A stretch of 64,000 nt of DNA from an uncultured archaeon (GCA_964640225.1 CAZXFI010000003.1:3442-67441), one strand, 5' to 3'; shown: positions 4,339 through 57,153, counted from the first letter of the stretch. A program made the numbers and translations. Notes: generated from the sequence alone by a model not told the origin.

Positions 4339-4958
4339 CTTATCACCTCAAAGGCTTCCGCGTAATCATTGTCGGACTGCACGCCCCTTACCCTTGCAAG
4401 GCCCCTGATGAAGTCCTCGGAGAAATAGCCTCTTTTCATGGACTTCTGGGTATTGTAGCAGCTCAGCATGTCCATTTTCCTTTTAACGTGTCTTTCGGAA
4501 AGCCTGAAAAAGAAAGTCGGGGAGAAGCCTATCTTGTTCCACGGAATTTCGTAACCGAGAATGTTGGAACGCTTGTTGAACGCTCTCAATCCTTCCATGG
4601 CCACAACGTGATGGTCCTGGTGAAAATCATTAAGGGAAGGCATTATCACCAGGTCCGGTGAAAATTCCTGCCTTATTTTTATCAGGCTTTCAAGTATTTC
4701 CTGCCTTTTTTCGTGAAAACACCTCACCTTGAAATCATATATTGTATATTTTTCAAGGCCGAGTTTTTTTGCCACTTCCAGGAATTCTTTTTTCAAGGCG
4801 TCCCTGGGAAATCCCCCCGGGACCGAGTCCTCGGCCACGGAAAAAACCACCCACTTGACATCGTGCCCCTCTTCAAGAAAACGGGCCACGGTGCCGCCCG
4901 CCCCCAGTTCCACGTCGTCCGTGTGAGGCGAGAGAAGCAGTATCTTTATTTTTTTCAT
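4326..4958 (-). CDS. PIG-L/LmbE-family N-acetyl-sugar deacetylase
   Basis: The N-terminal SPHTDDVELGAGGT motif is the LmbE/PIG-L signature. Confidence 0.7.
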   Translation of the reverse strand: MKKIKILLLSPHTDDVELGAGGTVARFLEEGHDVKWVVFSVAEDSVPGGFPRDALKKEFLEVAKKLGLEKYTIYDFKVRCFHEKRQEILESLIKIRQEFSPDLVIMPSLNDFHQDHHVVAMEGLRAFNKRSNILGYEIPWNKIGFSPTFFFRLSERHVKRKMDMLSCYNTQKSMKRGYFSEDFIRGLARVRGVQSDNDYAEAFEVIRWRQ

Positions 4959-14730: not shown

Positions 14731-15450
14731 TCATCCAAATCCCCTCTTTAACATTCCCTTGAGCTCTGTTAAATTTCTTGTTTTAGTCATCGCCAGAACT
14801 ATTCCCTCTATTCCCGCTATCCTCCTGGCCACCTCGTCCACCTTTTCTGGCCCATGGAGTATTACGAGTGAGGGTTTTAGGTTTGTCACCTTTATGGCAA
14901 CCATTGAAGACCTTCCTGTGGTTACGTTTGAGAATATAAGCGCCCTGTTGGTTGTAAACCCGTATATTTTGACCAATTCCATCGGGGTTAGCTCCATTAT
15001 GGCTTTCATTGAATCAACAAGCGAGTAGCCGTATATCTCGTTCTCTAGTAAATCTTCCCTTGAGACCACCATGCAGTTTGTTTTCTCGCAAAAATCCCCT
15101 ATTGAAACAGGGTATTTAAATTCCTTTATATCAAGAATGCTTGAAAGTAGAAAATTTTCTCCTGAAAGCGTGTAAAACTCCCTTAAAAATTCGGCTCCCT
15201 TCCTTTCGGAAATTTTTATAAGGGAATTGACTATGTTGTTTATTATTTTTATTCCCGGTGAAGACCTTCTGTTGCTTTCATAATCAGATATTACAGAAGG
15301 TGTGACCTTCATTTCATCTGCAATTTCCTTTTGAGAAACTTTGAAAATATTTCTCCATTTTTTTATAACCGAGCCTGGTTTTTGGGACAGGACTATTTCT
15401 CCACAAATTCTCTTAACTAAATTCTCTTTTATTAAATCTTTTTCATTCAT
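14731..15450 (-). CDS. HTH (XRE-type) transcriptional regulator, archaeal COG1395-like
   Basis: HTH motif VSQKEIADEMKVTPSVISDYE followed by a C-terminal domain. Confidence 0.55.
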   Translation of the reverse strand: MNEKDLIKENLVKRICGEIVLSQKPGSVIKKWRNIFKVSQKEIADEMKVTPSVISDYESNRRSSPGIKIINNIVNSLIKISERKGAEFLREFYTLSGENFLLSSILDIKEFKYPVSIGDFCEKTNCMVVSREDLLENEIYGYSLVDSMKAIMELTPMELVKIYGFTTNRALIFSNVTTGRSSMVAIKVTNLKPSLVILHGPEKVDEVARRIAGIEGIVLAMTKTRNLTELKGMLKRGFG

Positions 15451-15727
15451 AAGTTATTTATTGTCGAAATAAATATAAATAAATGTCGTATATACCCTGA
15501 GACGTTTGTTTCTTATGGAGATTTTTTATTTTTAATAGGTTTATAATATAATATATAACAGTGTTATATCATAGTTAGTAGTAGTAATAAGAAATTCCAA
15601 AGGAAATAGAGGGGTGTCTTATTCACACCCCTTTATTTCACGTGCAAATTCACACCCCTTTATTTCACGTGCAGATATGTATTTATAAATTCAAACTCTA
15701 TATGAAAGAAAGGGGGGTTGGTTTCAT
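15451..15727. promoter_or_regulatory. Candidate replication origin (oriC) upstream of orc1/cdc6
   Basis: A ~130 bp AT-rich stretch (candidate DUE, 15.47-15.60 kb) is followed by ORB-like elements of the form dyad CACGTG + GAAA + G-string. All lie immediately 5' of orc1/cdc6. Confidence 0.55.
15622..15673. repeat. Tandem 25-nt ORB-like elements. An inverted half-site lies at 15611-15631.
   Basis: TTCACACCCCTTTATTTCACGTGCA occurs twice with a 27-bp period. On the bottom strand it reads CACGTGAAATAAAGGGGTGTGAA. GGGGTGT / ACACCCC form an inverted repeat. Confidence 0.6.
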
Positions 15728-16915
15728 TTGCAAAAATCTTTGGAGTCTATTTTCAATGGTTATGTAAATAAAAGAAAGATTTTTACTAACAAAAAAGCAA
15801 TAACAATTTCCTACAAACCCAACGAGCTTCCACACAGAAACAGGGAAATAGAGAGCGTGGCTTCAATTTTAGGCCCAAGTTTAAGTGGGGAGAAACCCTC
15901 CAATGTATTTATATTCGGGAAGCCCGGAACAGGCAAAACTGCCGTGATTCACCTAATATCAAAAAAACTCACTAAGATGAGCAAAAAAAACGTGGGCCTG
16001 TTTTATCTTAATTGTAAAATGAGGAATGTGGCCGACACGGAATATAGGCTAATCGCGCAGCTTGCAAGAGAGCTCGGTGAGTTCGTTCCTGTCACAGGTC
16101 TCCCAACGGACCATGTTTACAACCTGTTCTTCAAGGCCTTGGACAAACGAGGCGGGGTTATTATTCTAATACTGGATGAAATAGACGTGCTTGTTGAAAA
16201 AATAGGGGACAACTTCCTTTATAACTTGACAAGAATAAACGAGGAGCTCAATAACACCCAGGTAAGTATAGTGGGAATTTCAAACAACCTGTCCTTCACG
16301 AACGACATGGATCCCCGCGTGAAGTCTTCACTTTCTGAGGAGGAGCTAATATTCCACCCTTACAATGCAATACAGCTGCAGGATATTTTAAGAAAGAGGT
16401 CCGAGGGGGCCTTCAAGGAAAACACCTTGGAGCCGGGTGTGATAGAAAAGTGCGCGGGACTGGCTGCCCAGGAGCACGGGGACGCCAGGAGGGCGCTGGA
16501 CCTGCTCAGAGTGGCCGCCGAGATAGCGGAAAGAGAAAGTTCGGAAAGGGTTATGGAGAAGCACGTTGACATGGCGGAGTCAAAAATAGACAAGGACAGG
16601 ATAGTAGAAATAGTAAAATCCCAACCCAGGCAGAGCCAGGCAGTCTTGTGGAGTATAATGAAGACAGGAGGCGAGATTCAGACGGGGGATATATTTTCTG
16701 TTTACGAAAAAATATGCGCCGAAAACGGCCTCAAGCCCCTGACGCACAGAAGGGTTTCCGACCTGATAGCGGAGCTGGATATGCTGGGAATAATAAGTGC
16801 CAGGGTTGTCAGCAAGGGCAGGTATGGAAGGACGAGAATAGTCAAGATGAGCCTCCAGGATTCTCTTTTAGGCAAAATAAGGGAAATACTGCAGACAAAA
16901 TATTACTTCCAGTGA
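15728..16915 (+). CDS. orc1: Orc1/Cdc6 replication initiator
   Basis: AAA+ Walker A GKPGTGKTA, Walker B LDEIDV, and a C-terminal winged helix. Confidence 0.85.
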   Translation: MQKSLESIFNGYVNKRKIFTNKKAITISYKPNELPHRNREIESVASILGPSLSGEKPSNVFIFGKPGTGKTAVIHLISKKLTKMSKKNVGLFYLNCKMRNVADTEYRLIAQLARELGEFVPVTGLPTDHVYNLFFKALDKRGGVIILILDEIDVLVEKIGDNFLYNLTRINEELNNTQVSIVGISNNLSFTNDMDPRVKSSLSEEELIFHPYNAIQLQDILRKRSEGAFKENTLEPGVIEKCAGLAAQEHGDARRALDLLRVAAEIAERESSERVMEKHVDMAESKIDKDRIVEIVKSQPRQSQAVLWSIMKTGGEIQTGDIFSVYEKICAENGLKPLTHRRVSDLIAELDMLGIISARVVSKGRYGRTRIVKMSLQDSLLGKIREILQTKYYFQ

Positions 16916-16919
16916 TTTT

Positions 16920-17927
16920 ATGGATTTGGTTAAGGATTTTTTAGACAAGGGAATTCTGCTGTCCCCGGGGGTGGTAGGCAAGGTTAAAAAAAAGGACCTG
17001 AAGGAAATAACGAAAAAAATGGGCAGGAAAGTCGTGGTAACGGGAGAGGTATTGTGCGCGGTCAGGGGAACGGGAGTGGAAATATTAAGAGAGCATAAGA
17101 AACTGGATGAAACAAAAAGAATAACGGAATTTGTTGATTTTTACAACAAAAGGTTTGAATTTTTGCGCGGATTGCTGGAGGAAAAACTGGAAATTGAGAA
17201 AATAACATCCATAAACAAACTTAACACAGGCAGAGTCACGGTCATAGGAATGGTAAGGGAAATAAATGATAAGGGGTTTAAGATAGAGGACTCCACGGGT
17301 TCTGTTTTTTGCAGGTCAGATGAAAGGCTTTTGGAGGACGAGGTTGTGGCGGTTGCGGGGAATTTTGACAGGAAAGACCTCTGCGCCGAAAAAATAATCT
17401 ACCCGGACATACCCCTTAACAAAAAAATAAATCTGACGAAGGAAGACTGCCGTGTGTTGTTCACAAAAAAACTCACCAAGGAGCCTTCACATGAACCTTC
17501 ACATATATTCACGTTTGATTTAAACCCGGAAATTTTGGGGAGCATTTCAGCAGAAATTATAACGAAAAAAGAGGGCCTGAAAAAAGGCCCCGGAAGGACA
17601 GGCCTTGGGCTACCATCTCTCTTGGAAATAAGCGGGGTGAAGATTTTTGTTTTTGAGAACAAGGAAATGGAAGAAATAAAGAAGAAAACGGAAATCAAAG
17701 ACGAGAAAAATCTAATTACCTCGCTCCTGAAAAGAAGGCACCTGCTTCCGCATGTTTACACGGAAGGCGACCCGTATCTGCTGAAGGATATACCAGACAT
17801 AATATTTTTCTCCGGGGGAAAGGAAAGTTTCTTCCTGAATTACAAGGGGGTTTCAATCGTTTCGGTTGCAGGAAAGGAAAGCTTTTTGGTAAACCTGAAA
17901 ACAAGGGATTATGAGGAGTTGGAATGA
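16920..17927 (+). CDS. Truncated DP1-like (PolD small-subunit / B-subunit-like) protein. It keeps the N-terminal domain, OB fold and C-terminal tail but lacks the phosphoesterase catalytic core.
   Basis: The MDLVKDFLDKGILLSP N-terminus and OB segment (IEDSTGSVF...VVAVAG) resemble DP1. The C-terminal LLKRRHLLP...DPYLL..IPDIIFFSGG...YKGVSIVSVAG is collinear with the DP1 tail RHVAP..DP..L...PD..HMGHVH...YRGV.LVNS, with the His residues replaced. Confidence 0.45.
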   Translation: MDLVKDFLDKGILLSPGVVGKVKKKDLKEITKKMGRKVVVTGEVLCAVRGTGVEILREHKKLDETKRITEFVDFYNKRFEFLRGLLEEKLEIEKITSINKLNTGRVTVIGMVREINDKGFKIEDSTGSVFCRSDERLLEDEVVAVAGNFDRKDLCAEKIIYPDIPLNKKINLTKEDCRVLFTKKLTKEPSHEPSHIFTFDLNPEILGSISAEIITKKEGLKKGPGRTGLGLPSLLEISGVKIFVFENKEMEEIKKKTEIKDEKNLITSLLKRRHLLPHVYTEGDPYLLKDIPDIIFFSGGKESFFLNYKGVSIVSVAGKESFLVNLKTRDYEELE

Positions 17928-18535
17928 ACATAATATTTGACCTCGGGGGCGTTTTAATAACAAACGACTGGGATAAAAAAAACACGGGGTTTTTTGCGGA
18001 GTTTATAGGGGTTTTCGGGGTTTCCGAGAAAGACATGGACCGGGGGTGGAGAGCCGGACACGATCCCTTCTTTACGGGTAGGATAAGCGAAAACGAGTTC
18101 TGGAAAATATTTTTTAAAAAGGCAGGCCGCGAAGAAGTCTCGGAAGAAGACCTTGCCCGCGCCAAAAAAATTTGGAGAAAGCACCAGAAACAGGACAAAA
18201 ACATGCTGGCTCTTTTGAGGAAACTGAAAAAAAACCACATTTTGGTAGGACTTACCAACCTAGGAAGGGAGTGGGCCGACTATAAGATAAAAAAATACAA
18301 ACTAAACAGGTATTTTCAAACGGTTTTCATTTCCGGGTACCTGGGAGTGGCCAAACCGGACCCGGAAATCTACAAGAAAGTACTCATGAAGCTCGGCGCC
18401 GAGCCAGAAGATTGCTTTTTTATTGACGACAGGGAGAGAAACACCGCCCCCGCGGAAATTCTGGGGTTCAGGACCGTTGTTTTTAAGAACCGGAAAGAAC
18501 TGGAAAAAAAACTGGCTGAAGTGGGTCTGCTGTAA
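17924..18535 (+). CDS. HAD-superfamily (subfamily IA-like) hydrolase
   Basis: N-terminal FDLGGVL nucleophile motif and a C-terminal FIDD motif. The ATGA overlaps the upstream gene. Confidence 0.7.
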   Translation: MNIIFDLGGVLITNDWDKKNTGFFAEFIGVFGVSEKDMDRGWRAGHDPFFTGRISENEFWKIFFKKAGREEVSEEDLARAKKIWRKHQKQDKNMLALLRKLKKNHILVGLTNLGREWADYKIKKYKLNRYFQTVFISGYLGVAKPDPEIYKKVLMKLGAEPEDCFFIDDRERNTAPAEILGFRTVVFKNRKELEKKLAEVGLL

Positions 18536-18600
18536 AACAATATGCTGCAGAACAAATTAATTTTTATAGCTTAATGTTCATTACTTTGTTGGGGTTGAAA

Positions 18601-21267
18601 ATGGAGTTGCAGGTTCTTGACGCCGATTACACGTTGCTTAATGAAAAACCAATAGTAAGAGTTTTCTGCAAGGATTCTACGGGGAAGGTTTTTTGTGTTT
18701 TTAAAAGGGGTGTGGAACCTTACTTCTATGCGCTGGGGGAAACGGATGAGATAAAGGAGAAACTCAAGAAATTTGAAGGCGAAATACAGAGAGTGGAGGA
18801 AGTAGAAAGGTTCCTTCCGGTGGGCTACCAGGAAAAGAAAACAAAAGTCCTTAAAATAACCAACAGAAACCCCTCCAAGGTTCCCGCCATAAGGGAAACC
18901 CTGGGGTGCAGGGTTTTTGAGGCGGACATTCTTTTCAAGTACAGGTTCTTCTCGGACACAGGCATAAAAGGCATGAACTGGATAGAAGTTGAGGGAGATT
19001 TTGTCAACACAAACACGGTCTCTTGTACGGGAATTGAAGCAAAAAAGATAAAACCAAAAAACAAGGAGGAAAACATTCCTTTAAAAATTATGGCCCTGGA
19101 CATAGAGACAGAGGCGCCGTCGGACAGGATGCCGGAGCCGGACAAGGACGCGATAACCATGATAAGCCTGGCCTTCTCGGAGGATTACAAAAAGGAGAAA
19201 GACATGGTTATAGTCTCAAAACATGTCATGCTCAGGGACGACCAGAAAAATAATACAATATGCACGGATAACGAGAAAAAAATGCTGGAAAAACTCAAGG
19301 ATGTGATAAACGACTACGACCCCGATGTAATAACAGGATACAACATACAGAACTTTGACATGCCCTTTATTGTCGGCAGGATGGACAAGTCCGGCGTCAA
19401 GAAGGACTTCGGAAGGGCAAAGGACAAGAACGTTTTTTGCAGCAAGTATGGTCCAATCTCCAACACGAACATGTCAGGAAGAATAGTCTCCGATTCCTAC
19501 CAAATTATCAAAAAAGACTTCTCCTTCAAGAGCTACAAGCTGGACAACGTAGCGGAAAAGCTTCTGGGCAAGAAAAAAATTGACATAAGCTACAAAGATT
19601 TTGAAAGGCTGTGGAACGGGAGAAAAGAGGGTGTTCAAAAACTCATAGATTACGCGAGAAAAGACTCAATACTGGCGCTGGACCTTGTGAAAAAGAAGAA
19701 CCTCCTTGACAAGTACATAGCTCTTTCAAGGGTTTCCGGAATACTGCTTCAGGATGCTCTGAACGGGGGAGAGTCAATAAGAATAGAAAACGTTTTGCTC
19801 TCCGAGTTCAACAAGAGAGGCCTACTTTTCCCTCCCAAGCCAAGCGACAGGGAGGTTATGGAAAGGGCGAATAGAAGGGAGAAGAGCGGACTGAAGGGGG
19901 GGCTTGTTCTGGAGCCGAGGGCGGGACTTCATACCGACGGATGCATACTTGTTCTGGACTTCAAGAGCCTTTACCCAAGCATAATAAGGACTTACAATAT
20001 ATGCCCCACAACGCTTCTCAAAGAAAATTTGGATGTGGAATACAGCACTTCCCCGCTTGGAATAAAGTTCGTGAAAAGCAGCGTAAAGGAAGGCATACTT
20101 CCCCACGTGCTGGAGAACCTGATAAACCAGAGATCCCTTGTCAAGAAAAAAATGCACGAGGAAAGGGATGCGGACAAGAAGAGACTGCTTTACGCCAAAC
20201 AGTGGGCCCTTAAAATACTGGCCAACGCCTTTTACGGTTATACGGGGTATCTCAGGGCAAAAACCTACGTCATGGAGGTGGCCAACACAATAACCGCCTT
20301 TGGTAGGGAATTGCTGCAAAGAACCAGAAAGGAAATAACCGACATGGGTTACGAGGTTGTATACGGGGACACGGACTCGGTTTTTGTTAAAGCGGACACC
20401 AAGGACCTTGAAAAGGCGTACAAGCTGGGAAACCGGATAGTAAGCAAGATAGACTTACCCGGAAAACTTGTCCTGGAATTTGAGAAAATATTCCGCTCGT
20501 TTCTTATATTGACCAAAAAAAGGTACGCCGGATGGAGCTTTGAGAAAAACAACGGCGACTGGTCGGACAAAATAGAGATGAAGGGAATAGAAACTGTGAG
20601 GAGGGACTGGCCAGACCTTGTAACGGAGAGCATGAATGTGGTGCTTAACATAATCCTGAAGGAAGGCAACGTCAAAAAGGCGATAGCCTACGTCCAGGGA
20701 GAGGTTGACAAGCTCAACGCGGGAACAGTGAACCTTAAAAAGCTCGCGGTCACAAAGAGCATAACAAAAAGCGTGGACAGGTATGACGGCATGCTGCCGC
20801 ACATAGAGCTGGCCAAAAAGATAAGTCAGAGGAATCCCTCCCAGACTCCTTCCCCGGGGACCAGGATATCTTACATCATAATAAGGGGCAACCAGATGCT
20901 GAGTAAGAGAGCCGAAGAGCCCGAGTACATAAACGAGCACAAGCTGAACATAGACTCCTGTTATTACATAGAGAACCAGCTTTTGCCCCCACTTGAAAGA
21001 ATATTTTCCGTGATAGGCGTTGACAAGGGAGAGCTTATGGGCAAGGGGAGGCAGTGCAACCTGAAGGACATGCTGAAGCCCGCCAAGAGAAACCATAAAA
21101 TAGAGATACCCCCGGAAAAAATTATCGTAAAGTCCCCCGAAGGATTCGTCTGCAGGAACTGCAACAAGAATTTCAGAAGGGTCCCTCTTGTGGGTAGGTG
21201 TGATTGCGGGGGAGAGATTCTGGCCTTTGCTCGGGGGAATATGGGTTTTCTTATAAAACTAAATTAA
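18601..21267 (+). CDS. polB: Family B DNA polymerase (PolB) with a C-terminal Zn-ribbon extension
   Basis: Exo I LDIETE. Pol motifs DFKSLYPSII, KILANAFYGYTGY, YGDTDS. A ~85-aa tail after the thumb carries CRNC...CDCGG. ATG 18601 is preferred. Confidence 0.85.
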   Translation: MELQVLDADYTLLNEKPIVRVFCKDSTGKVFCVFKRGVEPYFYALGETDEIKEKLKKFEGEIQRVEEVERFLPVGYQEKKTKVLKITNRNPSKVPAIRETLGCRVFEADILFKYRFFSDTGIKGMNWIEVEGDFVNTNTVSCTGIEAKKIKPKNKEENIPLKIMALDIETEAPSDRMPEPDKDAITMISLAFSEDYKKEKDMVIVSKHVMLRDDQKNNTICTDNEKKMLEKLKDVINDYDPDVITGYNIQNFDMPFIVGRMDKSGVKKDFGRAKDKNVFCSKYGPISNTNMSGRIVSDSYQIIKKDFSFKSYKLDNVAEKLLGKKKIDISYKDFERLWNGRKEGVQKLIDYARKDSILALDLVKKKNLLDKYIALSRVSGILLQDALNGGESIRIENVLLSEFNKRGLLFPPKPSDREVMERANRREKSGLKGGLVLEPRAGLHTDGCILVLDFKSLYPSIIRTYNICPTTLLKENLDVEYSTSPLGIKFVKSSVKEGILPHVLENLINQRSLVKKKMHEERDADKKRLLYAKQWALKILANAFYGYTGYLRAKTYVMEVANTITAFGRELLQRTRKEITDMGYEVVYGDTDSVFVKADTKDLEKAYKLGNRIVSKIDLPGKLVLEFEKIFRSFLILTKKRYAGWSFEKNNGDWSDKIEMKGIETVRRDWPDLVTESMNVVLNIILKEGNVKKAIAYVQGEVDKLNAGTVNLKKLAVTKSITKSVDRYDGMLPHIELAKKISQRNPSQTPSPGTRISYIIIRGNQMLSKRAEEPEYINEHKLNIDSCYYIENQLLPPLERIFSVIGVDKGELMGKGRQCNLKDMLKPAKRNHKIEIPPEKIIVKSPEGFVCRNCNKNFRRVPLVGRCDCGGEILAFARGNMGFLIKLN

Positions 21268-25611: not shown

Positions 25612-27447
25612 ATGACGATTTACGAACCAAAGGTGATAAAAATGAGCAATAAAAAAAGACAAAAGATAGTACCGGACACTTCCGTAATCATAGACGAGAA
25701 GCTGTCTGAACTGATAGAGAAAGACGGCCTGAAGGCAGACATAATCATACCGGAAATGGTTCTGGATGAGCTGCAGAGCCAGGCTAACAGGGGTCTGGAG
25801 ATAGGATTCAACGGGCTTAACGAAATAAAGAAGCTGAGGGACATATCAAAAACCAACCCCGGTGTGAAGATAATGGCCACCGGAAGAAGACCCACCCCCG
25901 ACGAGGTTAAGCTTGCCAAGAAGGGAAGGATAGACGCCCTTATAAGGGACGTTGCCAAGAAGGAATCCGCGGTTCTTTACACGGAGGACCTTGTACAGTC
26001 TGAGGTGGCCAAGGCCGACGGCATTGAAGTGGTTTACATAGAGACAAAGTCCGACGAGGAACTGGTTTTTGAGAAATACCTCACGAAGAACACGATGTCC
26101 CTTCATTTCAAGGAAAAATCAAGGCCGATGGCCAAGATAGGAAAACCAGGAGAGGTGGAACTGAAGGAGTTGAGAAAGGAGATTTGCACCAAGGAGGAGC
26201 TTGAGAGAATGGCTTCGGACATAGTATATGCTACCAGGCGCAGGGAAGGGCAGTTTGAGATAAGCCGCAACGGAGCAGAGGTCGTGCAGCTGGGGGAGTA
26301 TAGGATTGCGATAACAAAACCTCCGTTTTCCAAGGACTACGAGATAACGATAATAAGGCCCATAGTAAAGCTAAAGCTGGAGGACTACGAACTCTCTGAA
26401 AAGCTTTTAAAAAGGCTAAAAAGAAAGGCCGAGGGAATTCTTATATCGGGACCGCCAGGCTCCGGGAAGTCAACCTTCGCGTCGGGCCTTGCGGAGTTCT
26501 ACCTGAAGCAGGGAAAGATAATAAAAACCCTGGAATCCCCAAGGGACCTGCAGGTGCCACCCGAGGTAACGCAGTACGCGCCGCTCAACGGCAGCATGTC
26601 AAACTCGGCAGACGTGCTTCTTCTTGTAAGGCCGGACTACACGATTTACGACGAGATGAGGAAGACCGCCGATTTCAGGGTTTTCTCGGACATGAGGCTA
26701 TCCGGAATAGGAATGGTCGGGGTGGTGCATGCAAGCGATCCTATTAACGCCGTGCAGAGGTTTATCGGAAGGACAGAGCTGGGAATGATACCCCACATAC
26801 TTGACACAATAGTTTTCATAAGGTACGGCAAGATAGAAAAGGTCTTTTCAATCTCCATGAAGGTGAAAGTCCCCACAGGGATGGTGGAGCAGGACCTGGC
26901 CAGGCCGGTTGTGGAGATAAGGGACTTTGAATCTGGAAAACTGGAGTATGAAATATACACCTACGGCGAGGAAAACGTGGTCTTGGAAGTCTCGGAAGAG
27001 AAGGACAAGCCCATGGAAAAGTTGGCAAAGGAAAGGATAAGAGAGGAAATAAAGAAGTACGACAAGTCCGCGGAAATAGAGTTCACGGGCGGAAAAAGAA
27101 TAGTGGCAAAGGTCGGCAACAAGGCAATACCGAAGCTTATAGGCAAGGAAGGAAAGACGATAGAGAAGATAGAGAAGAAGCTCGGGGTAAGCATAGACGT
27201 CCAGCCGAGAATAGAGAGCCTGGGAAAAGAGGTGAAATTTGACGTGGGCGAAAGCGGGGCCTATATAATATTTTCCTTCAAGAAAAATTTAAGAGGAGAA
27301 AACGCCAATACCTATGTGAAGGACGAGTATTTGTTCACGGCAACCGTGGGAAAGTCAGGTCAGATAAGGATTTCCAAGAATTCCGACCTGGGCAAGCAGA
27401 TAATAAACGCGCTTGCCACCAAGAAAAGAATCAGGGTATTTGTCTAG
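25612..27447 (+). CDS. PIN domain - PhoH-like ATPase - KH domain protein (COG1855-type)
   Basis: N-terminal PIN segment (IVPDTSVIID), P-loop GPPGSGKST, C-terminal KH (GKEGKTIEKIEKKLG). Confidence 0.7.
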   Translation: MTIYEPKVIKMSNKKRQKIVPDTSVIIDEKLSELIEKDGLKADIIIPEMVLDELQSQANRGLEIGFNGLNEIKKLRDISKTNPGVKIMATGRRPTPDEVKLAKKGRIDALIRDVAKKESAVLYTEDLVQSEVAKADGIEVVYIETKSDEELVFEKYLTKNTMSLHFKEKSRPMAKIGKPGEVELKELRKEICTKEELERMASDIVYATRRREGQFEISRNGAEVVQLGEYRIAITKPPFSKDYEITIIRPIVKLKLEDYELSEKLLKRLKRKAEGILISGPPGSGKSTFASGLAEFYLKQGKIIKTLESPRDLQVPPEVTQYAPLNGSMSNSADVLLLVRPDYTIYDEMRKTADFRVFSDMRLSGIGMVGVVHASDPINAVQRFIGRTELGMIPHILDTIVFIRYGKIEKVFSISMKVKVPTGMVEQDLARPVVEIRDFESGKLEYEIYTYGEENVVLEVSEEKDKPMEKLAKERIREEIKKYDKSAEIEFTGGKRIVAKVGNKAIPKLIGKEGKTIEKIEKKLGVSIDVQPRIESLGKEVKFDVGESGAYIIFSFKKNLRGENANTYVKDEYLFTATVGKSGQIRISKNSDLGKQIINALATKKRIRVFV

Positions 27448-48765: not shown

Positions 48766-48810
48766 AGGATTTAAACTACAATTACCATAGGTTTTATTGA
48801 ACACCGTTCA

Positions 48811-49146
48811 ATGCATAAGGGAAAGATTTTTATGCCACAAAAAAAGCAGGATTTGCAGAAAATAAAAAGGATTTTAAGGGTTCTTTTGGCAAATCCGGAT
48901 GGTATATGGCTTAGAAAGATATCCAGAGAGTCAAAACTGCCCCTTTCCACGGTACACTATTATTTAGAGAATATAATGGTGAATATGGTAGAAAACATAG
49001 GCGCCAGGGACGAAGAAGGCCGTTTCTTCGGTGTAAGGCTTATAAGACTTAAAAACGGGCTTTTTAACCAGCTTAACAACGGAGACCTGGATTCAAGTCT
49101 CAGAAAGGTAATCAAAACCAACGAGATACTCTCAGATTTGGGTTAG
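48811..49146 (+). CDS. Small winged-helix DNA-binding protein
   Basis: wHTH (LRKISRESKLPLSTVHYYLENI). Confidence 0.45.
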   Translation: MHKGKIFMPQKKQDLQKIKRILRVLLANPDGIWLRKISRESKLPLSTVHYYLENIMVNMVENIGARDEEGRFFGVRLIRLKNGLFNQLNNGDLDSSLRKVIKTNEILSDLG

Positions 49147-49149
49147 GTC

Positions 49150-49560
49150 CCGGGAATCACAAACCTTCCAGTCTCACATTAACTCTCACATTTGAAACAA
49201 AAGACTAACATTTACTCCCAAAAACCCGAAAAACCTCACTTTTCTCCCCGGGTTTTCAAACCTCACTCTTTTCCTCCCTAATAAGGACCCAAAAACACTC
49301 ACATTTCCTTTCTTAACTCATCTAAATGAACTTGAAGCGGGTTGTTTACCGGATAAATTAGCGGATGGCTCACATTTTGCATATTATCCTGCGAAAAATT
49401 CCAATTTTCATCCTTCTCAATGGCCAATATAATCGGGTTTATAGGGCTAAATACTCACATTTGGCCTAAATAGCCTAGTTTAACTTCCACAACCCCGTGT
49501 TTTATTCAGAATGATTAACTCACATAACCAATCCAGTTCCGTCAAATCTCTCCAGCGCTT
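49150..49560. repeat. Non-coding array of roughly 8 CTCAC(A/T)TT(T) iterons
   Basis: CTCACATTT-like 9-mers recur at irregular spacing. No ORF over 60 aa on either strand. Confidence 0.5.
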
Positions 49561-49903
49561 AAAACCTTCACGTAAGGTATTCACATACTATTCACATATC
49601 CTTCACATTAATACCTTCACGTTCACGTGAACGCACAATATTGCATCATTAATCAAAACTTTCCATAAAACCCTTCACAAAGTATTCACGTGAACCTTCA
49701 CGTTTTAATAAAAATTTTCACAAACCCTTCACATGATATTCACATATTATTCACAAATTCACAAAACCTTCACAAAATATTCACGTGAAATTCACGTGAA
49801 GGTGTGAATAAATATAAGGAAGATTTGTCACAAATTAACCTTCACATTTAAATATTCACGTGAACTTATTTAAGGTAAGTAAGCTTCACGTGAAGGTGTT
49901 TTA
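49561..49903. repeat. Dense array of TTCAC(G/A)T / palindromic TTCACGTGAA (mini-ORB-like) iterons
   Basis: About 20 copies of TTCAC(R)T. 6 perfect TTCACGTGAA palindromes. Two TTCACGTGAAGGTGT elements next to the downstream gene. Confidence 0.6.
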
Positions 49904-51040
49904 GTGATAGAAGACTACGAAAAAAACCTTGAAAACTGGCTTAATCGGCTGAACTGGAAAGAAAACCCCTTCACGCTGAAAATAGACCCCCTGCTTTACG
50001 TGGGCTACCAGGACCAGCTAAAGCGCCTTATAAACCACATACGCGAGGGGCACAAGGTCGCCCTGATAACAGGCTCAACGGGTTCGGGGAAGACTACCAC
50101 TCTAAAGCTCATGGAAAGGGACTTGGACAGCAGTTACGAGGTTATTTACATCTCCAAACCCCCCAGAAAGGAGGATTTGGTGGACATATTCCTTTCCAGA
50201 TTCAGACCTTCCATTCTTCAGAGAATTTTCGGCGTGAATGTGAGCCTTCACAACCTTCACGTGTACCTGAACAAAAAACTGGGCCAGAAAAGGCTCCTTG
50301 TGCTCCTGGACGAGACTCACGAGGCGGATGTGGATGTCTTGAAGTGGTTCAGGACGCTTTGCGACCAAATAGAGGGAATGCAGCTTATAATGGCGGGATT
50401 GTCCACGGTTGATGTTGTTCTGAAGGACATAGAAACGCTAAGAAGCAGGATAATAACCCATATAGAACTCTTAAACCTTACACGTGAAGATTCACGTGAA
50501 CTTATAAAGAAAAGGATAGAGAGCGTGGGAGGCAACGACATAAGCCCCTTCACGGACAACTGCGTGAAGGAAATATACCAGATTACGGGGGGATTTCCCA
50601 GGGAAGTGCTTAAAATATGCGACAAGCTTGTTCAGAAGGCGATTGAGGAGAACAGGATGGAGATAAACCGGACGGAAGGTCTTAAATGTGAGACTTCGGA
50701 GCCCGGGGAGCCGGAAGAGGCTGTACCGGCATATTCAGGGGGCCCGGAGACCGCGGAAAAGGAAGAGAAGGGGCCCCCGAGCAAGGATTTCGTGAAGAGT
50801 CTGCCCTACAAGCAGAGAAAAATAATACTTCTTCTGTCGGAGGAAGGTGAGCTATTTCCGTCTGAACTGGCGGAGAAACTGGGGATTGAAAAATACAAGT
50901 CCAAGCAGCATGCCGTCAGATCGGTCAACAACATACTCAAGAGGCTCTCCGGAATGGGATACGTGGACAGGAAGCCGAGGGGAAAGGGGTTTGTCTATTC
51001 CCTGAACCTGAAGACAAAAAATCTGCTTATAAAGAGCTGA
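49904..51040 (+). CDS. AAA+ ATPase (ExeA/AAA_22-like, ORC-related) with a C-terminal winged helix
   Basis: ENPF motif, Walker A GSTGSGKTT, Walker B LLDETHE, C-terminal wHTH. GTG start after an AAGGTG purine tract. Confidence 0.6.
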   Translation: MIEDYEKNLENWLNRLNWKENPFTLKIDPLLYVGYQDQLKRLINHIREGHKVALITGSTGSGKTTTLKLMERDLDSSYEVIYISKPPRKEDLVDIFLSRFRPSILQRIFGVNVSLHNLHVYLNKKLGQKRLLVLLDETHEADVDVLKWFRTLCDQIEGMQLIMAGLSTVDVVLKDIETLRSRIITHIELLNLTREDSRELIKKRIESVGGNDISPFTDNCVKEIYQITGGFPREVLKICDKLVQKAIEENRMEINRTEGLKCETSEPGEPEEAVPAYSGGPETAEKEEKGPPSKDFVKSLPYKQRKIILLLSEEGELFPSELAEKLGIEKYKSKQHAVRSVNNILKRLSGMGYVDRKPRGKGFVYSLNLKTKNLLIKS

Positions 51041-51045
51041 TAAAT

Positions 51046-51576
51046 GTGCTGATTCTTCTTGTCGGCCTGACATCATCGGGAAAAAGCACGGCGGCCGAAA
51101 TACTCCGGGAAATGGGCTTTTCAGTTGCCTCCACCGGTGACGTTATAAGGGAGGAAATAAGAAACAGGGGCCTTGAGTACGACAAGAAAAACGACCTGGA
51201 GGTCTCAAAGTGGTTCAACGAGGGAAGGGAAGAGCTGGTCGTAAGAAGGCTTCTTCATATGCTGAGCGGGAAAAGGATGGCCTTGGACGGAATAAGGAGT
51301 CCGGAGATGCTGGAAAAGCTTGAGGAAACAGCCGGCGAGCGGCCGGTCATAGTGGCCATAAAGGCGGATTTTGACTCAAGGTTCAGGAGGGAATGTGAGA
51401 GAAAGAAGTTCGTCGGATTCACCAGGGAAGACATGAGAAAAAGGGACAACACACACCTGGGTATGGGAACAAGGGAATTAATGGAAAAGGCCGACTTCAC
51501 GATAGACAATACAAATCTCACAAAGGAGGAGCTTCGCAGGGAATTAAAGGGAATCGTGGAGAGTACAAACATATAA
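51046..51576 (+). CDS. P-loop nucleotide kinase (dephospho-CoA-kinase-like / UPF0200-like)
   Basis: LVGLTSSGKST P-loop at the N-terminus. GTG start. Confidence 0.5.
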   Translation: MLILLVGLTSSGKSTAAEILREMGFSVASTGDVIREEIRNRGLEYDKKNDLEVSKWFNEGREELVVRRLLHMLSGKRMALDGIRSPEMLEKLEETAGERPVIVAIKADFDSRFRRECERKKFVGFTREDMRKRDNTHLGMGTRELMEKADFTIDNTNLTKEELRRELKGIVESTNI

Positions 51577-54488: not shown

Positions 54489-55514
54489 ATGGCGGGCAAG
54501 AAGGTTTTAGTGCTCTGCGTTGACAGGGACAACGACCTGGGAGAAAAGACAGGCATAAAGAGCCCAGTCATAGGAAGGGAGAACAACGTCAGGGCCGCGA
54601 CCAGGCTGGCCATAGCGGATCCGGGAGACGCCGATTCAAACACGATTTTTGAGGCAGTAAGAACTTACGACGGCCTTAAGAAGGAAAGGAAAGCGGAGAT
54701 AGCCACCGTTACAGGGGACAAGAGGCCGGGAATAAAGTCCGACGAAAAGATAGTCAGGGAGATGGACAAGGTCTTGAAAAAAGTCCGCACCAAGGACGTG
54801 GTGCTGGTAACGGACGGGATTGACGATGAAAGGATACTGCCTCTCATACAGAACAAAGTCAACATAATTTCCGTCAACAGGCTGGTTATTAAACAAAGCG
54901 AAAGGCTTGAAGGTATGTATTACATGGTTCACGATTTTATAGAAAACCCCAAGATGTCAAAGGTTGTTCTGGGCGTTCCCGCCCTGGCCCTGATTCTTTA
55001 CGCGCTCTTCGGCTCAACAGGGTGGAGGGCGATATTGGGGATACTGGGGCTTTACCTGCTGGTAAAGGGGTTCAAGCTGGAAGATACAATAATAAACTTC
55101 CTGAACGACCTGAGAACCACTGTGACAAAACGCAGGGTTGCTTTTTTCTTCTACATAGCATCCATAGCCGTTGCCATAATTGGCGTGAAGCTGGGCTACG
55201 ACTTCACCCAGACAATAGCGGCCAGGGATATTCTGGAGCTTTCCGCGTCTTTCATAAAAGGCTCCATATACGTTTTGTTCCTCTCGTGCCTTATTTTCAT
55301 AGTGGGAAGGATAATATCCCACGAGCCCGGAACCGGGGAAGCCTTCAAATACGTCACTTTAATGGCCCTGGGGTTCAGCATAACTCTCGTGTCGTCCGAA
55401 GCAGCCACAGTAATTCTCATGCCCGAGATGGGGATGAACGGCCTATTTACCTTCATAGTGTTCGGCTTTTTCATAGTGCTGGTTTCAATACTGTTTGAGA
55501 GGAAAATAACATAA
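54489..55514 (+). CDS. DUF373-family membrane protein
   Basis: KVLVLCVDRDNDLG N-terminus typical of DUF373, followed by a TM domain. Confidence 0.6.
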   Translation: MAGKKVLVLCVDRDNDLGEKTGIKSPVIGRENNVRAATRLAIADPGDADSNTIFEAVRTYDGLKKERKAEIATVTGDKRPGIKSDEKIVREMDKVLKKVRTKDVVLVTDGIDDERILPLIQNKVNIISVNRLVIKQSERLEGMYYMVHDFIENPKMSKVVLGVPALALILYALFGSTGWRAILGILGLYLLVKGFKLEDTIINFLNDLRTTVTKRRVAFFFYIASIAVAIIGVKLGYDFTQTIAARDILELSASFIKGSIYVLFLSCLIFIVGRIISHEPGTGEAFKYVTLMALGFSITLVSSEAATVILMPEMGMNGLFTFIVFGFFIVLVSILFERKIT

Positions 55515-55681
55515 AATATACTTTATAATATATATTTTTAAAAATATATTTTATAATATATCTATAATAAAACATATAATAAATAAAAACTATTAAAAAA
55601 TATATTTTATAAAATATATAATAAAAAAAATATAATAAACTTATAAATACTCTGGAAACAAAATAATAGGTAGGTGAAAAT
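55515..55681. repeat. Extremely AT-rich, low-complexity island (about 10% GC)
   Basis: ATATATTTTATAA-type motifs are repeated. Confidence 0.4.
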
Positions 55682-56071
55682 GTGAGGGGTGCGCCTGGAA
55701 AAAAGGAGCAGAAAAACAACTACAAGGAGCTTTTTTTCAAATTCAAGCCGGTTGAAATGCTGGTGTTCCTTAAAAAGGGAATGGGCCCAAAATACGCCAC
55801 ACAGGTCTCAAAAGGCGTGGATTGCACGTATTCCCACACCATAAAAGTTCTGGAAAAATTCAAGGACCTGGGCCTGGTTATTTTCAAGAAAAAAGGAAGA
55901 ATAAAGATGATACAGCTCACCCCAAACGGCGAGGAGATAGCCCATGATTTTGAGGGGTTGGGAAGAAAGTTTGAAAGGGCGGACTCCGAGAAAGACACCA
56001 AGAAAAAGGAAGACAAGAAAGCCGAGAAAAAGAGTGAAAGCGGCAAGGGAAAGAAAAACCCAAAAAATTAG
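55682..56071 (+). CDS. Winged-helix protein with a Lys-rich C-terminal tail
   Basis: wHTH (ATQVSKGVDCTYSHTIKVLEKF..KKKGRIKMIQLT) followed by a KKKEDKKAEKK tail. Confidence 0.4.
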   Translation: MRGAPGKKEQKNNYKELFFKFKPVEMLVFLKKGMGPKYATQVSKGVDCTYSHTIKVLEKFKDLGLVIFKKKGRIKMIQLTPNGEEIAHDFEGLGRKFERADSEKDTKKKEDKKAEKKSESGKGKKNPKN

Positions 56072-56240
56072 CTCCACAACGTTACAATAATGAAAATAAG
56101 GCATAAACCCGGGAAAACCATAAATTTGCCAAATTATCCCCATGTTTTAAGACCAAATCTTCTATTCAATAACCAAACAATAGAAATCTTTTTATATTCA
56201 CTGAAGCTTATTTACACTATAACGTTATTGGTGATGTTTT

Positions 56241-56711
56241 ATGGAAAAACCCACCCCGCCCAATGAAAAAAGGTTAAAATCCAAGGAGTCCTTGTATTAT
56301 CCTTCGGTACTCGGCGGCAAATGGAAGACGCTTGACCCTGATGTAAGGTGGGATTTAAGTGACGTAATAAACCACGTTTTCCCCCGAGAATACCAGGAAA
56401 AATCCAATGAATACGCGCAAAAACTAATGGAATTTTTGTTTCTCAACCCAGGGGGAATTGACAAAAAAATGCTGTCGGAATTCGTGAAAGGCCATAATTT
56501 GCCCGTTTCAACACTATATAACATTGTTATACCAAAACTCGTGAAATTGGGCATGGTGGAAAGAAGGCGCGAGCCAAACGCCTCAAATCCCGGGAAGGGC
56601 TGGTTCCTTATTCTCAAACCCTCTGTTTCGTTTTCTTCCCATTTGATCAAACTGGCGGGCGAGTGGAGGTCGCTGTACAAAACAGCATACTCCAAAGAGC
56701 ATAATGAATAA
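56241..56711 (+). CDS. Hypothetical protein with a wHTH-like segment
   Basis: STLYNIVIPKLVKLGMVERR recognition-helix-like segment. Confidence 0.35.
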   Translation: MEKPTPPNEKRLKSKESLYYPSVLGGKWKTLDPDVRWDLSDVINHVFPREYQEKSNEYAQKLMEFLFLNPGGIDKKMLSEFVKGHNLPVSTLYNIVIPKLVKLGMVERRREPNASNPGKGWFLILKPSVSFSSHLIKLAGEWRSLYKTAYSKEHNE

Positions 56712-56960
56712 TATATTTTTAAAAGATTTTTTTGTAAAATATATAATATAAAAGTTATAATTAAATAGTTATTTTAAATAATATATTTTACATTATATAT
56801 ATTATACAATATAGAAAAAATCACACAAAAATGTGAGACTTCAGGACCCAGACTCACAAGCCAAAAGAGCCCAGAATGCAAAATATGAGGTTTTAAGGCC
56901 TTTTTGATGCGTTATTAAAGTATCTTTATATAATTAAACTACCAAGAAAAAAAGAGGAAA
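56712..56960. repeat. Second AT-rich island sharing the ATATATTTTA(T/C)A motif
   Basis: Low-complexity AT DNA upstream of tRNA-Gln. Confidence 0.4.
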
Positions 56961-56961
56961 T

Positions 56962-57131
56962 AGCCCCGTAGTCTAGTGGCCAAAGGAAGTTGACATATAC
57001 GAGGTATATGTTTGTGCAATCTTTCGGTTATGGATGGGAGGCTCTGGACCTCCAGACCCAGGTTCGAATAAGCTTTTTTCTAAAAAGCTTAAGCAAAAAC
57101 TTAAAAAACGAGAGTCCTGGCGGGGCTACCA
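56962..57131 (+). tRNA. tRNA-Gln (anticodon CUG) with two non-canonical introns (D-arm and T-loop)
   Basis: Acceptor AGCCCCG/CGGGGCT, discriminator A, encoded CCA. Anticodon arm GGAGG-CTCTGGA-CCTCC at 57037-57053. T-arm CCAGG-TTCGAAT-[46-nt intron 57070-57115]-CCTGG. A ~48-nt insert sits between the D-stem halves. Confidence 0.6.
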
Positions 57132-57153
57132 TTTGTTTTAAGGGGGTACAAAA

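Follow-up and report, generated by a model that had tools for sequence, protein, structure and literature searches.

Phased TTCAC sites beside an initiator-like AAA+ gene: a phylum-wide candidate assembly site near the orc1 origin of Aenigmarchaeota

In the bacterial origin oriC, low-affinity DnaA boxes lie 2 bp apart and are anchored by strong boxes, and dnaA itself sits beside oriC and is autoregulated. Short repeats also make up plasmid centromeres: the parC site bound by ParR in plasmid R1 consists of 11-bp iterons over the par promoter, and the omega heptads of pSM19035 are likewise plasmid centromeres. Here I describe a locus that resembles both, in a stretch of 64,000 nucleotides (the window; CAZXFI010000003.1:3442-67441, GCA_964640225.1) that is part of the chromosome of a member of the Aenigmarchaeota (a DPANN archaeon), as the labels of homologues and of matching genome records indicate. 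A 757-bp spacer packed with TTCAC repeats, most of them 11 bp apart, precedes a gene for an AAA+ ATPase that ends in a winged helix, and a gene for a small winged helix-turn-helix (wHTH) protein lies on the other side (Table 1). The explanation that I favour, at a probability of roughly 40%, is that the spacer is the DNA on which the AAA+-wHTH protein assembles and that the assembly serves as an origin-proximal handle on the chromosome. Chromosome positioning, segregation and regulation are largely unknown in archaea, and in DPANN especially, and the module is a compact, sharply defined, phylum-wide cis element of ~27 phased sites with two dedicated proteins beside a canonical origin. Sites and proteins alike are of a size that suits recombinant work, even though the organisms are uncultivated. 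A literature search returned no paper that describes the module, archaeal ATPases of the ExeA-like kind or the origins of Aenigmarchaeota. The parts are known ones (an initiator-clade AAA+ protein with a DNA-binding tail, a phased array, autoregulation), in an undescribed combination and setting.

An original prediction, made by a model from the nucleotide sequence, had singled out the spacer as an exceptional non-coding stretch, and it is indeed the largest gap in the window between open reading frames (ORFs) of at least 80 aa, the runner-up measuring 445 bp. An RNA gene was rejected as its content, since nothing in Rfam matches the spacer at gathering thresholds (the sole match, to an sRNA, has E = 0.055 and is meaningless). 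The repeats do form the two sub-arrays first described, eight CTCAC units and then, at 49567-49898, 27 TTCAC half-sites, 20 on the + strand and 7 on the - strand. Only six pairs of half-sites are perfect TTCACGTGAA palindromes, the other units being unpaired TTCAC(A/G)T half-sites with a usual spacing of 11 bp; of the "~30 CACGTG-centred iterons" first proposed, the repeats are thus real and the centring is not. The repeats are also particular to the locus, as had been supposed. TTCACGTGAA occurs seven times in 64 kb, always within 49622-50500, with 0.08 copies expected and none of 100 shuffles reaching seven. TTCACR is present in 121 copies in the window (58 expected), and CTCACATT in 10 (1.6 expected), five of them within 49173-49461. 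Clusters of at least three TTCAC/GTGAA sites with gaps of at most 30 bp number eight in the window against 0.34 in shuffles, and three of these clusters make up the array (49567-49631, 49674-49808 and 49841-49894, with 7, 15 and 5 sites).

Table 1. Features of the array locus and of the orc1 origin, in window coordinates
Feature	Position	Strand	Remarks
HTH_3 gene flanking orc1 origin	14731-15450	-	
Canonical orc1-adjacent origin	15451-15727		Origin recognition boxes (ORBs) 15593-15670, AT-rich 15509-15580
Three classical ORBs with G-strings	15593-15670		One TTCCAAAGGAAATAGAGGGGTGT facing two tandem TTCACACCCCTTTATTTCACGTGCA; beside 93%-AT stretch
orc1	15728-16915		Cdc6_lid and Cdc6_C (Pfam)
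Mini-cluster of 4 array-type half-sites in the gene after orc1	17460-17512	+	1.8 kb from ORBs
Palindrome TTGAACACCGTTCAA between TATA-like boxes and start of wHTH gene	48797-48811		Read directly
Small wHTH protein gene	48832-49146	+	104 aa from second ATG; ORF opens 48811
Non-coding spacer holding whole array	49147-49903		757 bp, GC 0.38 vs ~0.47
Sub-array 1, 8 CTCAC(A/T)T units	49173-49526	+ only	Spacing irregular
Sub-array 2 block A, 7 TTCAC half-sites	49567-49631		11-13 bp spacing; ends in palindrome TTCACGTGAA (49622)
Sub-array 2 block B, 15 half-sites	49674-49811		Mostly 11 bp apart; palindromes 49685, 49780, 49791; TTCACGTGAAGGTGTGAAT
Sub-array 2 block C, 5 half-sites	49841-49898		Palindromes 49855, 49885 interleaved with TATA-like boxes
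TATA-like boxes in block C	TTTAAATA 49847-49854; TTATTTAAGG 49866-49875		Assigned by eye
GGTG Shine-Dalgarno-like element in block C	49895-49898		Assigned by eye
AAA+ ATPase gene	49904-51040	+	GTG start; AAA+ 1-250, disordered linker 261-291, winged helix 296-377
Cluster of 3 half-sites inside AAA+ gene	50234-50260		At this position in only ~12/81 homologues; significance uncertain
CACGTGAA plus perfect TTCACGTGAA (50491-50500) inside AAA+ gene	50484-50500		Two CGT-GAA (Arg-Glu) codon pairs; kept only in closest relatives
Small P-loop kinase-like gene (AAA_18/AAA_17)	51046-51576	+	5 bp past AAA+ stop
Stand-alone PRC-barrel protein, 85 aa	51623-51880	+	Pfam PRC just under cut-off: E 6e-4, 20.1 vs 21.2 bits

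What holds in the window holds across the phylum. One genome per species gave 80 loci, nearly all labelled Aenigmarchaeota, whose AAA+-wHTH proteins show 38-70% identity. An array lies upstream of the AAA+ gene in 68 of the 77 loci with at least 600 bp of upstream sequence (median 27 sites over ~550 bp), and the density of sites rises about 18-fold before the start codon, from ~0.2 per 100 bp elsewhere to 3.6-4.6 per 100 bp at -400..0. Perfect TTCACGTGAA is 174 times denser in the upstream zones (2.61 per kb) than in 668 kb of flanks (0.015 per kb, ten copies, six of which are one conserved coding position), and CACGTGAA is the commonest upstream 8-mer in most loci. Over all loci a same-strand spacing of 11 bp was counted 429 times and spacings of 10 or 12 bp at most 67 times, with harmonics at 21-22, 30-31 and 41-43; helical phasing is therefore conserved and no accident of the window genome.

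The gene order is shared as well, reading 2',3'-cyclic phosphodiesterase-(NrdDG)-(wHTH)-array-AAA+-(kinase)-PRC-RadA-RPA, with RadA (65/80 loci) and RPA (62/80) on the other strand. The neighbours of the homologues are thus conserved and DNA-related (RadA, RPA, NrdD), and no secretion- or transposition-type neighbourhood was found among them. Metagenomes gave 57 stretches with two phased palindromes; the AAA+ gene adjoins 27 of them, some nine more end at a contig edge yet show the syntenic neighbours, and about two thirds of the prokaryotic double-palindrome matches are this locus; neither the double palindrome nor relatives of the AAA+-wHTH protein were found in 2.9 million viral contigs. 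Because synteny is conserved, the array tracks the gene and viral relatives are lacking, I conclude that the module is old, vertically inherited and chromosomal.

The small wHTH protein is a genuine conserved partner, as had been proposed, and the number of CTCAC units follows its presence. Its gene lies within 2.5 kb upstream in ~60 loci; CTCAC averages 3.9 copies in loci with the gene so placed and 0.47 in those without it, and counts of 5-10 go with a gene directly upstream on the + strand. The original prediction took the small wHTH gene and the AAA+ gene to be divergent in orientation; they are co-directional. The start of the wHTH gene is probably 48832, because homologues have 104 aa. 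The palindrome just upstream is a probable operator of the gene: GAACANNGTTC is found once in the window, and the palindromes TTGAACAGTGTTCAA, ATATAACAGGTGTTATA and TAGACAGATGTCTAA occupy the equivalent place in most loci. The fold is a generic MarR/IclR/ArsR winged helix, and comparison of folds found no specific tie to AspA, to Cdt1/WhiP or to the Orc winged helix.

The AAA+ gene was read correctly at the outset, with its GTG start, Walker A and B motifs and C-terminal winged helix. It encodes 378 aa, and its homologues start at the same MIEDYEK in a 14-sequence alignment, which shows no variation at Walker A K63 or at Walker B D136/E137. R182 and R233, which by position would be the arginine finger and sensor 2, are Arg in 81/81 sequences, and the conservation of all these residues predicts an active, oligomerising ATPase. 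The AF2 model (pLDDT 83.5) has a 30-residue low-confidence linker before the winged helix, whose recognition helix HA(V/I)RSxNNIL hardly varies among proteins of 38% to 100% identity. Pfam assigns AAA_22, ATPase_2 and AAA_16, with only weak MarR-type matches at the C-terminus, and did not detect Cdc6_lid (PF22703) or Cdc6_C (PF09079), which the same run gave for the true Orc1 of the window at 1e-25 and 3e-24. TIGR03015 (ExeA-like) matches residues 17-257 with E = 3e-22, but at 79 bits against a cut-off of 324, and the PHROG match is "DNA transposition protein". In structure the best Foldseek matches are archaeal and eukaryotic Orc1/Cdc6 (E = 7e-12 to 6e-9), with MuB (15.5) and TnsC (15.2), transposition ATPases that form filaments on DNA, ranking close behind; the three-domain fold of Orc1/Cdc6 is present, with AAA+ base, lid, winged helix and the initiator-type beta2-beta3 insertion. 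Because Orc1/Cdc6 proteins match best in structure and Cdc6_lid and Cdc6_C are missing by sequence, the protein belongs to the initiator group of AAA+ but, by sequence criteria, not to the Orc1/Cdc6 family. A profile search (E ~1e-55) also returned relatives of its AAA+ module (P0160, P0174, P0185) that have an N-terminal TPR and zinc ribbon and no C-terminal winged helix, and this form is a second architecture of the ATPase.

Iteron copies inside the AAA+ gene had been noted too. They exist, at the two places listed in Table 1, but in 81 homologues most follow from codons for conserved Pro-Phe-Thr, Val-Asn and Arg-Glu, and as conserved binding sites they were rejected. CGT makes up 9% of Arg codons in the AAA+ genes, and no Arg column is enriched for it. 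The copies common to the closest relatives may be selected as DNA.

Like DnaA-oriC, the module pairs an initiator-clade AAA+ protein carrying a C-terminal DNA-binding domain with short asymmetric boxes in 11-bp phase between stronger sites, and has its own promoter inside the site field; unlike it, the module has a winged helix and not DnaA domain IV, shows no clear unwinding element in the window and shares the chromosome with an Orc1 origin. With plasmid centromeres it has in common dense short repeats at about one helical turn, blocks that flank an operon promoter, a small DNA-binding partner gene and, likely, the dual role of assembly site and operator. It departs from them in that the binder would be an AAA+-wHTH protein and not a ribbon-helix-helix one, in having no actin-like or ParA-like motor gene, and in being chromosomal and phylum-wide. 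The bacterial parS consensus is TGTTTCACGTGAAACA (PMC7022226); TTCACGTGAA is its central 10 bp, and the sites of the module, like parS, cluster near the origin. The 16-bp TGTTNCACGTGAAACA is not found, however, the module's sites being 10 bp long and packed into one 330-bp array rather than scattered, and no ParB (HTH plus CTPase) is apparent in the module, the genome itself not having been searched for ParB.

Among AAA+ proteins, ExeA/GspA and TniB/TnsC/MuB are the best matches by sequence family, sharing an N-terminal NPF motif and a GGxPR motif that I read as sensor 2. The module protein nevertheless falls under the TIGR03015 cut-off, stands in no peptidoglycan-binding, secretion or transposase-partner context and, unlike the ExeA/TnsC group, has a winged helix predicted to be sequence-specific and a dedicated array of sites. 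With archaeal Orc1/Cdc6 and its ORBs the module shares a gene that adjoins its presumed sites and sites with a dyad core. The differences are that the protein is ExeA/AAA_22-like, without Cdc6_lid or Cdc6_C and with a 30-residue disordered linker before the winged helix, that the array is built on TTCAC and not TTCCA, without a G-string and with ~27 phased sites against 2-4 ORBs, and that a true Orc1 with ORBs of its own exists separately in the same genome.

In the explanation that I prefer, the spacer would be the cognate assembly site of the protein encoded by the gene that follows. The AAA+-wHTH protein would read the TTCAC half-sites through its C-terminal recognition helix, nucleate on the TTCACGTGAA palindromes and, driven by ATP, polymerise through its AAA+ modules along half-sites 11 bp, or one helical turn, apart, giving a nucleoprotein filament or wrap of ~330 bp. 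These steps are suggested by the association in 68 genomes, by the joint conservation of site and helix and by the conserved ATPase residues; that the protein binds the array is, on these comparisons, quite probable, and that it assembles cooperatively and in phase has somewhat better than even odds. The AAA+ gene would have its core promoter and leader in block C, and a filament that covered the TATA boxes and the leader would repress its own operon, because the last two palindromes (49855, 49885) adjoin or come after the TATA-like boxes, ahead of the GGTG element and the GTG start; a like layout of promoter and palindromes is seen in another species (L061). The second component would be the small wHTH protein, paired with the one-stranded CTCACAT sub-array.

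The use to which such an assembly would be put is the more tentative part. A centromere-like or organising role, a handle in the manner of parC-ParR or parS-ParB but with an AAA+ motor, is possible, and I weigh it because of the constant origin-side position, the likeness to 11-bp iteron centromeres, the identity with the parS core and the PRC-barrel neighbour. In 11 of 11 placeable cases (six of them placed by inference from the HTH_3 gene that neighbours orc1) the array has the orc1 origin on its upstream side, at 34 kb in the window, 33 kb in the L002 contig, 14 kb in the L021 contig and ~5 kb in both L061 and L081; the genomes measure about 0.8-0.9 Mb, and the AAA+ gene points away from the origin. 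As at plasmid centromeres, the phased cluster of sites overlaps the promoter of the adjacent operon. That operon probably includes the kinase-like gene, which is found at the corresponding place in 37/80 loci, and the most constant downstream neighbour is the PRC-barrel gene (73/80). Stand-alone PRC-barrel proteins, CdpB1-3, are cell-division factors of haloarchaea (doi 10.1101/2023.03.28.534520). The fullest version, an archaeal centromere derived from a replication initiator, with an AAA+ filament, a wHTH partner and a co-expressed PRC-barrel division protein, is on the whole unlikely. Were the module a centromere or organiser, partition systems would gain a new class, one with an initiator-type AAA+ ATPase at its core.

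Several observations weigh against this explanation. No ParA/SegA-, ParM- or TubZ-class NTPase adjoins the module, the nearby NTPases being the AAA+ protein and the AAA_18 kinase-like protein, and no AAA+ protein is known to bind centromeres or to drive partition. The nearest relatives of the modelled structure are replication initiators, which would point to replication over segregation. The 10-bp resemblance to parS may be chance, and the extended forms of the site in some lineages (TGTTCACGTGAACA, 14 bp) fall 2 bp short of parS. Not all roles of PRC-barrel proteins lie in division (doi 10.1101/2023.03.28.534520). Arrays are reduced or absent in 9 of the 77 loci, the lineages that lack one including L036, L051, L070-72, L079 and L081. 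A homologue of the Nanopusillus/Nanobsidianus type (338 aa, Nanobdellota; L082 8001-9017), which has a tRNA gene upstream and overlaps a downstream ATP_bind_3 gene, has no repeat array upstream of it, and the array is therefore specific to Aenigmarchaeota. The pooled 4-fold GC skew differs between the flanks by -0.023 +/- 0.008 (57 loci), as occasional origin firing would also cause, although this difference is confounded by the gene content that each side shares in every genome. Finally, R347 is replaced by V/M/F in four genomes with TTCAT-rich arrays (L056, L063, L066, L080), which weakly fits an AAA+ protein that reads the fifth base directly; the change belongs to one clade, the covariation is imperfect and L060 keeps Arg at this position despite 50% TTCAT. 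As proof of the binder this covariation was rejected, there being one event only and a counter-example, and it is suggestive at most.

The main rival, and my second choice after a centromere-like role, is that the array serves the initiator-like factor as a reservoir or loop anchor near the orc1 origin, on which it would act from there; it might titrate, bridge or load a replication factor. The datA and DARS sites of E. coli act in this way for DnaA, and bipartite bacterial origins have a second cluster of DnaA boxes. The initiator-clade fold suits such control of replication, as do the constant distance of 5-34 kb from the orc1 origin and the island of replication and recombination genes (RadA, RPA, NrdD, PolB) in which the module lies. 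Mini-clusters of array-type sites in orc1 and in the next gene add to this. At the position equivalent to 17460-17512 a close relative (L086) holds five sites (4740-4801) with a differing peptide (TKEPSHEPSH there, TSRDSQKHSHIPYL in the window), and such a cluster, kept as DNA and not as peptide, suggests selection on the DNA; the orc1-side clusters are, however, known from two close relatives only. On a small replicon-like contig (L124), 6-7 such sites lie next to the contig's own iterons and Rep gene, much as plasmid origins carry host DnaA boxes. Control of this kind has no archaeal precedent. I hold it to be unlikely, if less so than the other rivals. If the module does control or start replication, DnaA-like logic would operate beside Orc1 in an archaeon, and on either reading an Orc/Cdc6-like fold with ExeA-like sequence would have been recruited to a second site-specific task on the chromosome.

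The cluster within orc1 lies at 16295-16331. The replicon-like contig (Ga0315293_10035501, 4383 bp) encodes a 587-aa AAA_25 primase/helicase-like protein and an HNH endonuclease; its 6-7 TTCACGTGAA-type sites are intergenic (1252-1370), beside its own TAGTCCCGT repeats, and no terminal overlap was found. It may be a mobile element that borrows the sites of its host.

A second origin, the headline of the original prediction, is improbable: unproven, and somewhat disfavoured by the tests made. Here the AAA+-wHTH protein would melt DNA or recruit MCM at the array, as at oriC3 of Sulfolobus, which WhiP specifies. The long non-coding stretch of low GC, the Orc1/Cdc6 proteins at the top of the structural matches and the phased boxes that recall DnaA-oriC all fit, and an initiator-like gene that adjoins its own array follows the archaeal rule for origins and initiators (PMC3607249). 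WhiP is likewise a non-Orc1 winged-helix factor encoded beside the element it presumably specifies; it is, however, Cdt1-like and no ATPase, unlike the module protein, an ATPase by sequence, and oriC3, distant from the other origins, was presumably captured from an extrachromosomal element, whereas the module is vertical and origin-proximal (PMC3607249). A canonical origin only 5-34 kb away leaves a second one without benefit in genomes of this size. Such a short distance between two origins has no known precedent in a genome of less than 1 Mb. Pfam gives the protein neither of the two Cdc6 domains, and no 40-bp segment of the window array exceeds an AT content of 0.78, against 0.93 at the orc1 origin. 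Over 70 loci the arrays are moderately AT-rich, their median excess over the locus being 0.25, but this test is weak, because the arrays overlap the range of 0.21-0.40 at orc1 origins. The 4-fold GC skew of the window stays level across 48-51 kb (coefficient 0.00 to -0.01), its best switch falling at 12-30 kb; a sign in the other direction is the small pooled difference between flanks given above.

About as improbable is an elaborate transcription factor, an ATP-switched regulator of the STAND/MalT kind whose array would do no more than adjust expression of the operon that it precedes (AAA+, kinase, PRC barrel), and perhaps of some genes elsewhere. Bacterial STAND/MalT-type regulators do oligomerise on several phased boxes, the AAA+ fold is also STAND NTPase-like, the sites overlap the core promoter, and the small wHTH protein is of MarR/IclR type with an operator-like palindrome of its own. 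Yet ~27 sites in 330 bp and eight more in 350 bp, kept in 68 of 77 genomes, far exceed what autoregulation needs, the palindrome occurs at no other promoter in the 668 kb of flanks, and the locus holds its position near the origin.

It is more doubtful still that Orc1/Cdc6 binds the array as a field of mini-ORBs, which would make it a displaced piece of the ordinary origin and the AAA+ gene a bystander. Methanogen origins do have many short mini-ORB repeats, and two ORBs contain TTTCACGTGCA in the window and in its close relative L086. The original prediction, too, held that elements of the array mirror the ORB near orc1: the sequence CACGTGAAAT...GGGGTGTGAA is present there (15622-15670), but the kinship is not supported, the ORBs being classical ones with a G-string. 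In L061, L081, L084, L086 and L088 the ORBs read TTCCA-NN-GGAAAC plus GGGG, and the arrays, read in L061 and covered by site counts for the L021 contig of L088 and for L014 (the species of L084), are of TTCAC type without a G-string. The sites of the window array are likewise TTCAC/GTGAA without a G-string, in contrast to the Orc1-type dyad TTCCA-NN-GGAAA, which usually has one. Because half-site and dyad spacing both differ, the array is a different family of sites from the ORBs, and Orc1 would be an unlikely binder. The array also tracks the AAA+ gene and not orc1, whose distance varies from 5 to 34 kb, and the recognition helix of the AAA+ protein matches the site in conservation.

A replication module that came in with a plasmid or virus, as the original prediction also proposed, is effectively refuted, for a GC content below that of the surroundings, a superficial likeness to rep-iteron cassettes and the sites shared with the replicon-like contig stand against an identical place and neighbours in 80 species-level genomes, 38-74% protein identity that fits vertical descent, the lack of any relative among viral contigs, and a locus at which no integrase, flanking direct repeats, tRNA or other RNA gene was found.

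The module offers a landmark for the annotation of Aenigmarchaeota genomes and is a likely cause of breaks in their assemblies. Contigs often end no more than a few hundred bases from an array (L090, L099, L113, L116, L123, L131, L132, L138 and others), so that arrays probably break short-read assemblies. Two contigs in the collection are probably mis-binned: L023, labelled as an Aminicenantia bacterium, matches L022 in gene order and match identities, and L072, labelled as a Campylobacterales bacterium, likewise matches L070/L071, the matched loci being archaeal. One further element, met on opposite strands as L105 (1650-1722) and L127, has nine TTCAC-type sites, a double palindrome among them, in a 90-bp gap between unannotated ORFs of a 5.7-kb contig without the AAA+ gene. 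Repeats of ATTTCACGTGAAAT occur on GC-poor (~0.32-0.37) metagenome contigs without archaeal neighbours (L091, L092, L101, L115, L121, L122, L129, L133, L134, L144, L146); these look like a eukaryotic repeat family that contains the palindrome by chance, because L134 encodes a RING/B-box (TRIM-like) protein and archaeal neighbours are lacking.

At the orc1 origin, the AT-rich part holds a palindrome core AACAGTGTT (TATAACAnTGTTATAT) in six genomes (15557-15565 in the window). The palindromes upstream of the wHTH gene, TTGAACAGTGTTCAA or, in the window, TTGAACACCGTTCAA (48797-48811), are related to it and in most loci lie between the TATA box and the start codon; copies of the origin and wHTH palindromes lie at ~1050 and 5110-5125 in L061, and the regions upstream of orc1 in L081, L084, L086 and L088 have the origin one as well. 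The related palindromes could link the small wHTH protein to the origin, or they could be facing TATA boxes. After orc1 come a 335-aa gene (16920-17927) without a Pfam match, which in relatives also follows orc1, at 300-340 aa, then a HAD hydrolase (17924-18535) and a family-B DNA polymerase (18574-21267). Elsewhere in the window, the stretch 55494-57153 is low in GC (0.36-0.41) and very AT-rich at 55494-55668 and 56693-56834, with an ORF-free gap of 442 bp (56712-57153) and a small HTH_27 winged-helix ORF (55682-56071), and a gene at 25612-27447 encodes a 611-aa protein that combines PIN, P-loop ATPase (T2SSE-like) and KH domains.

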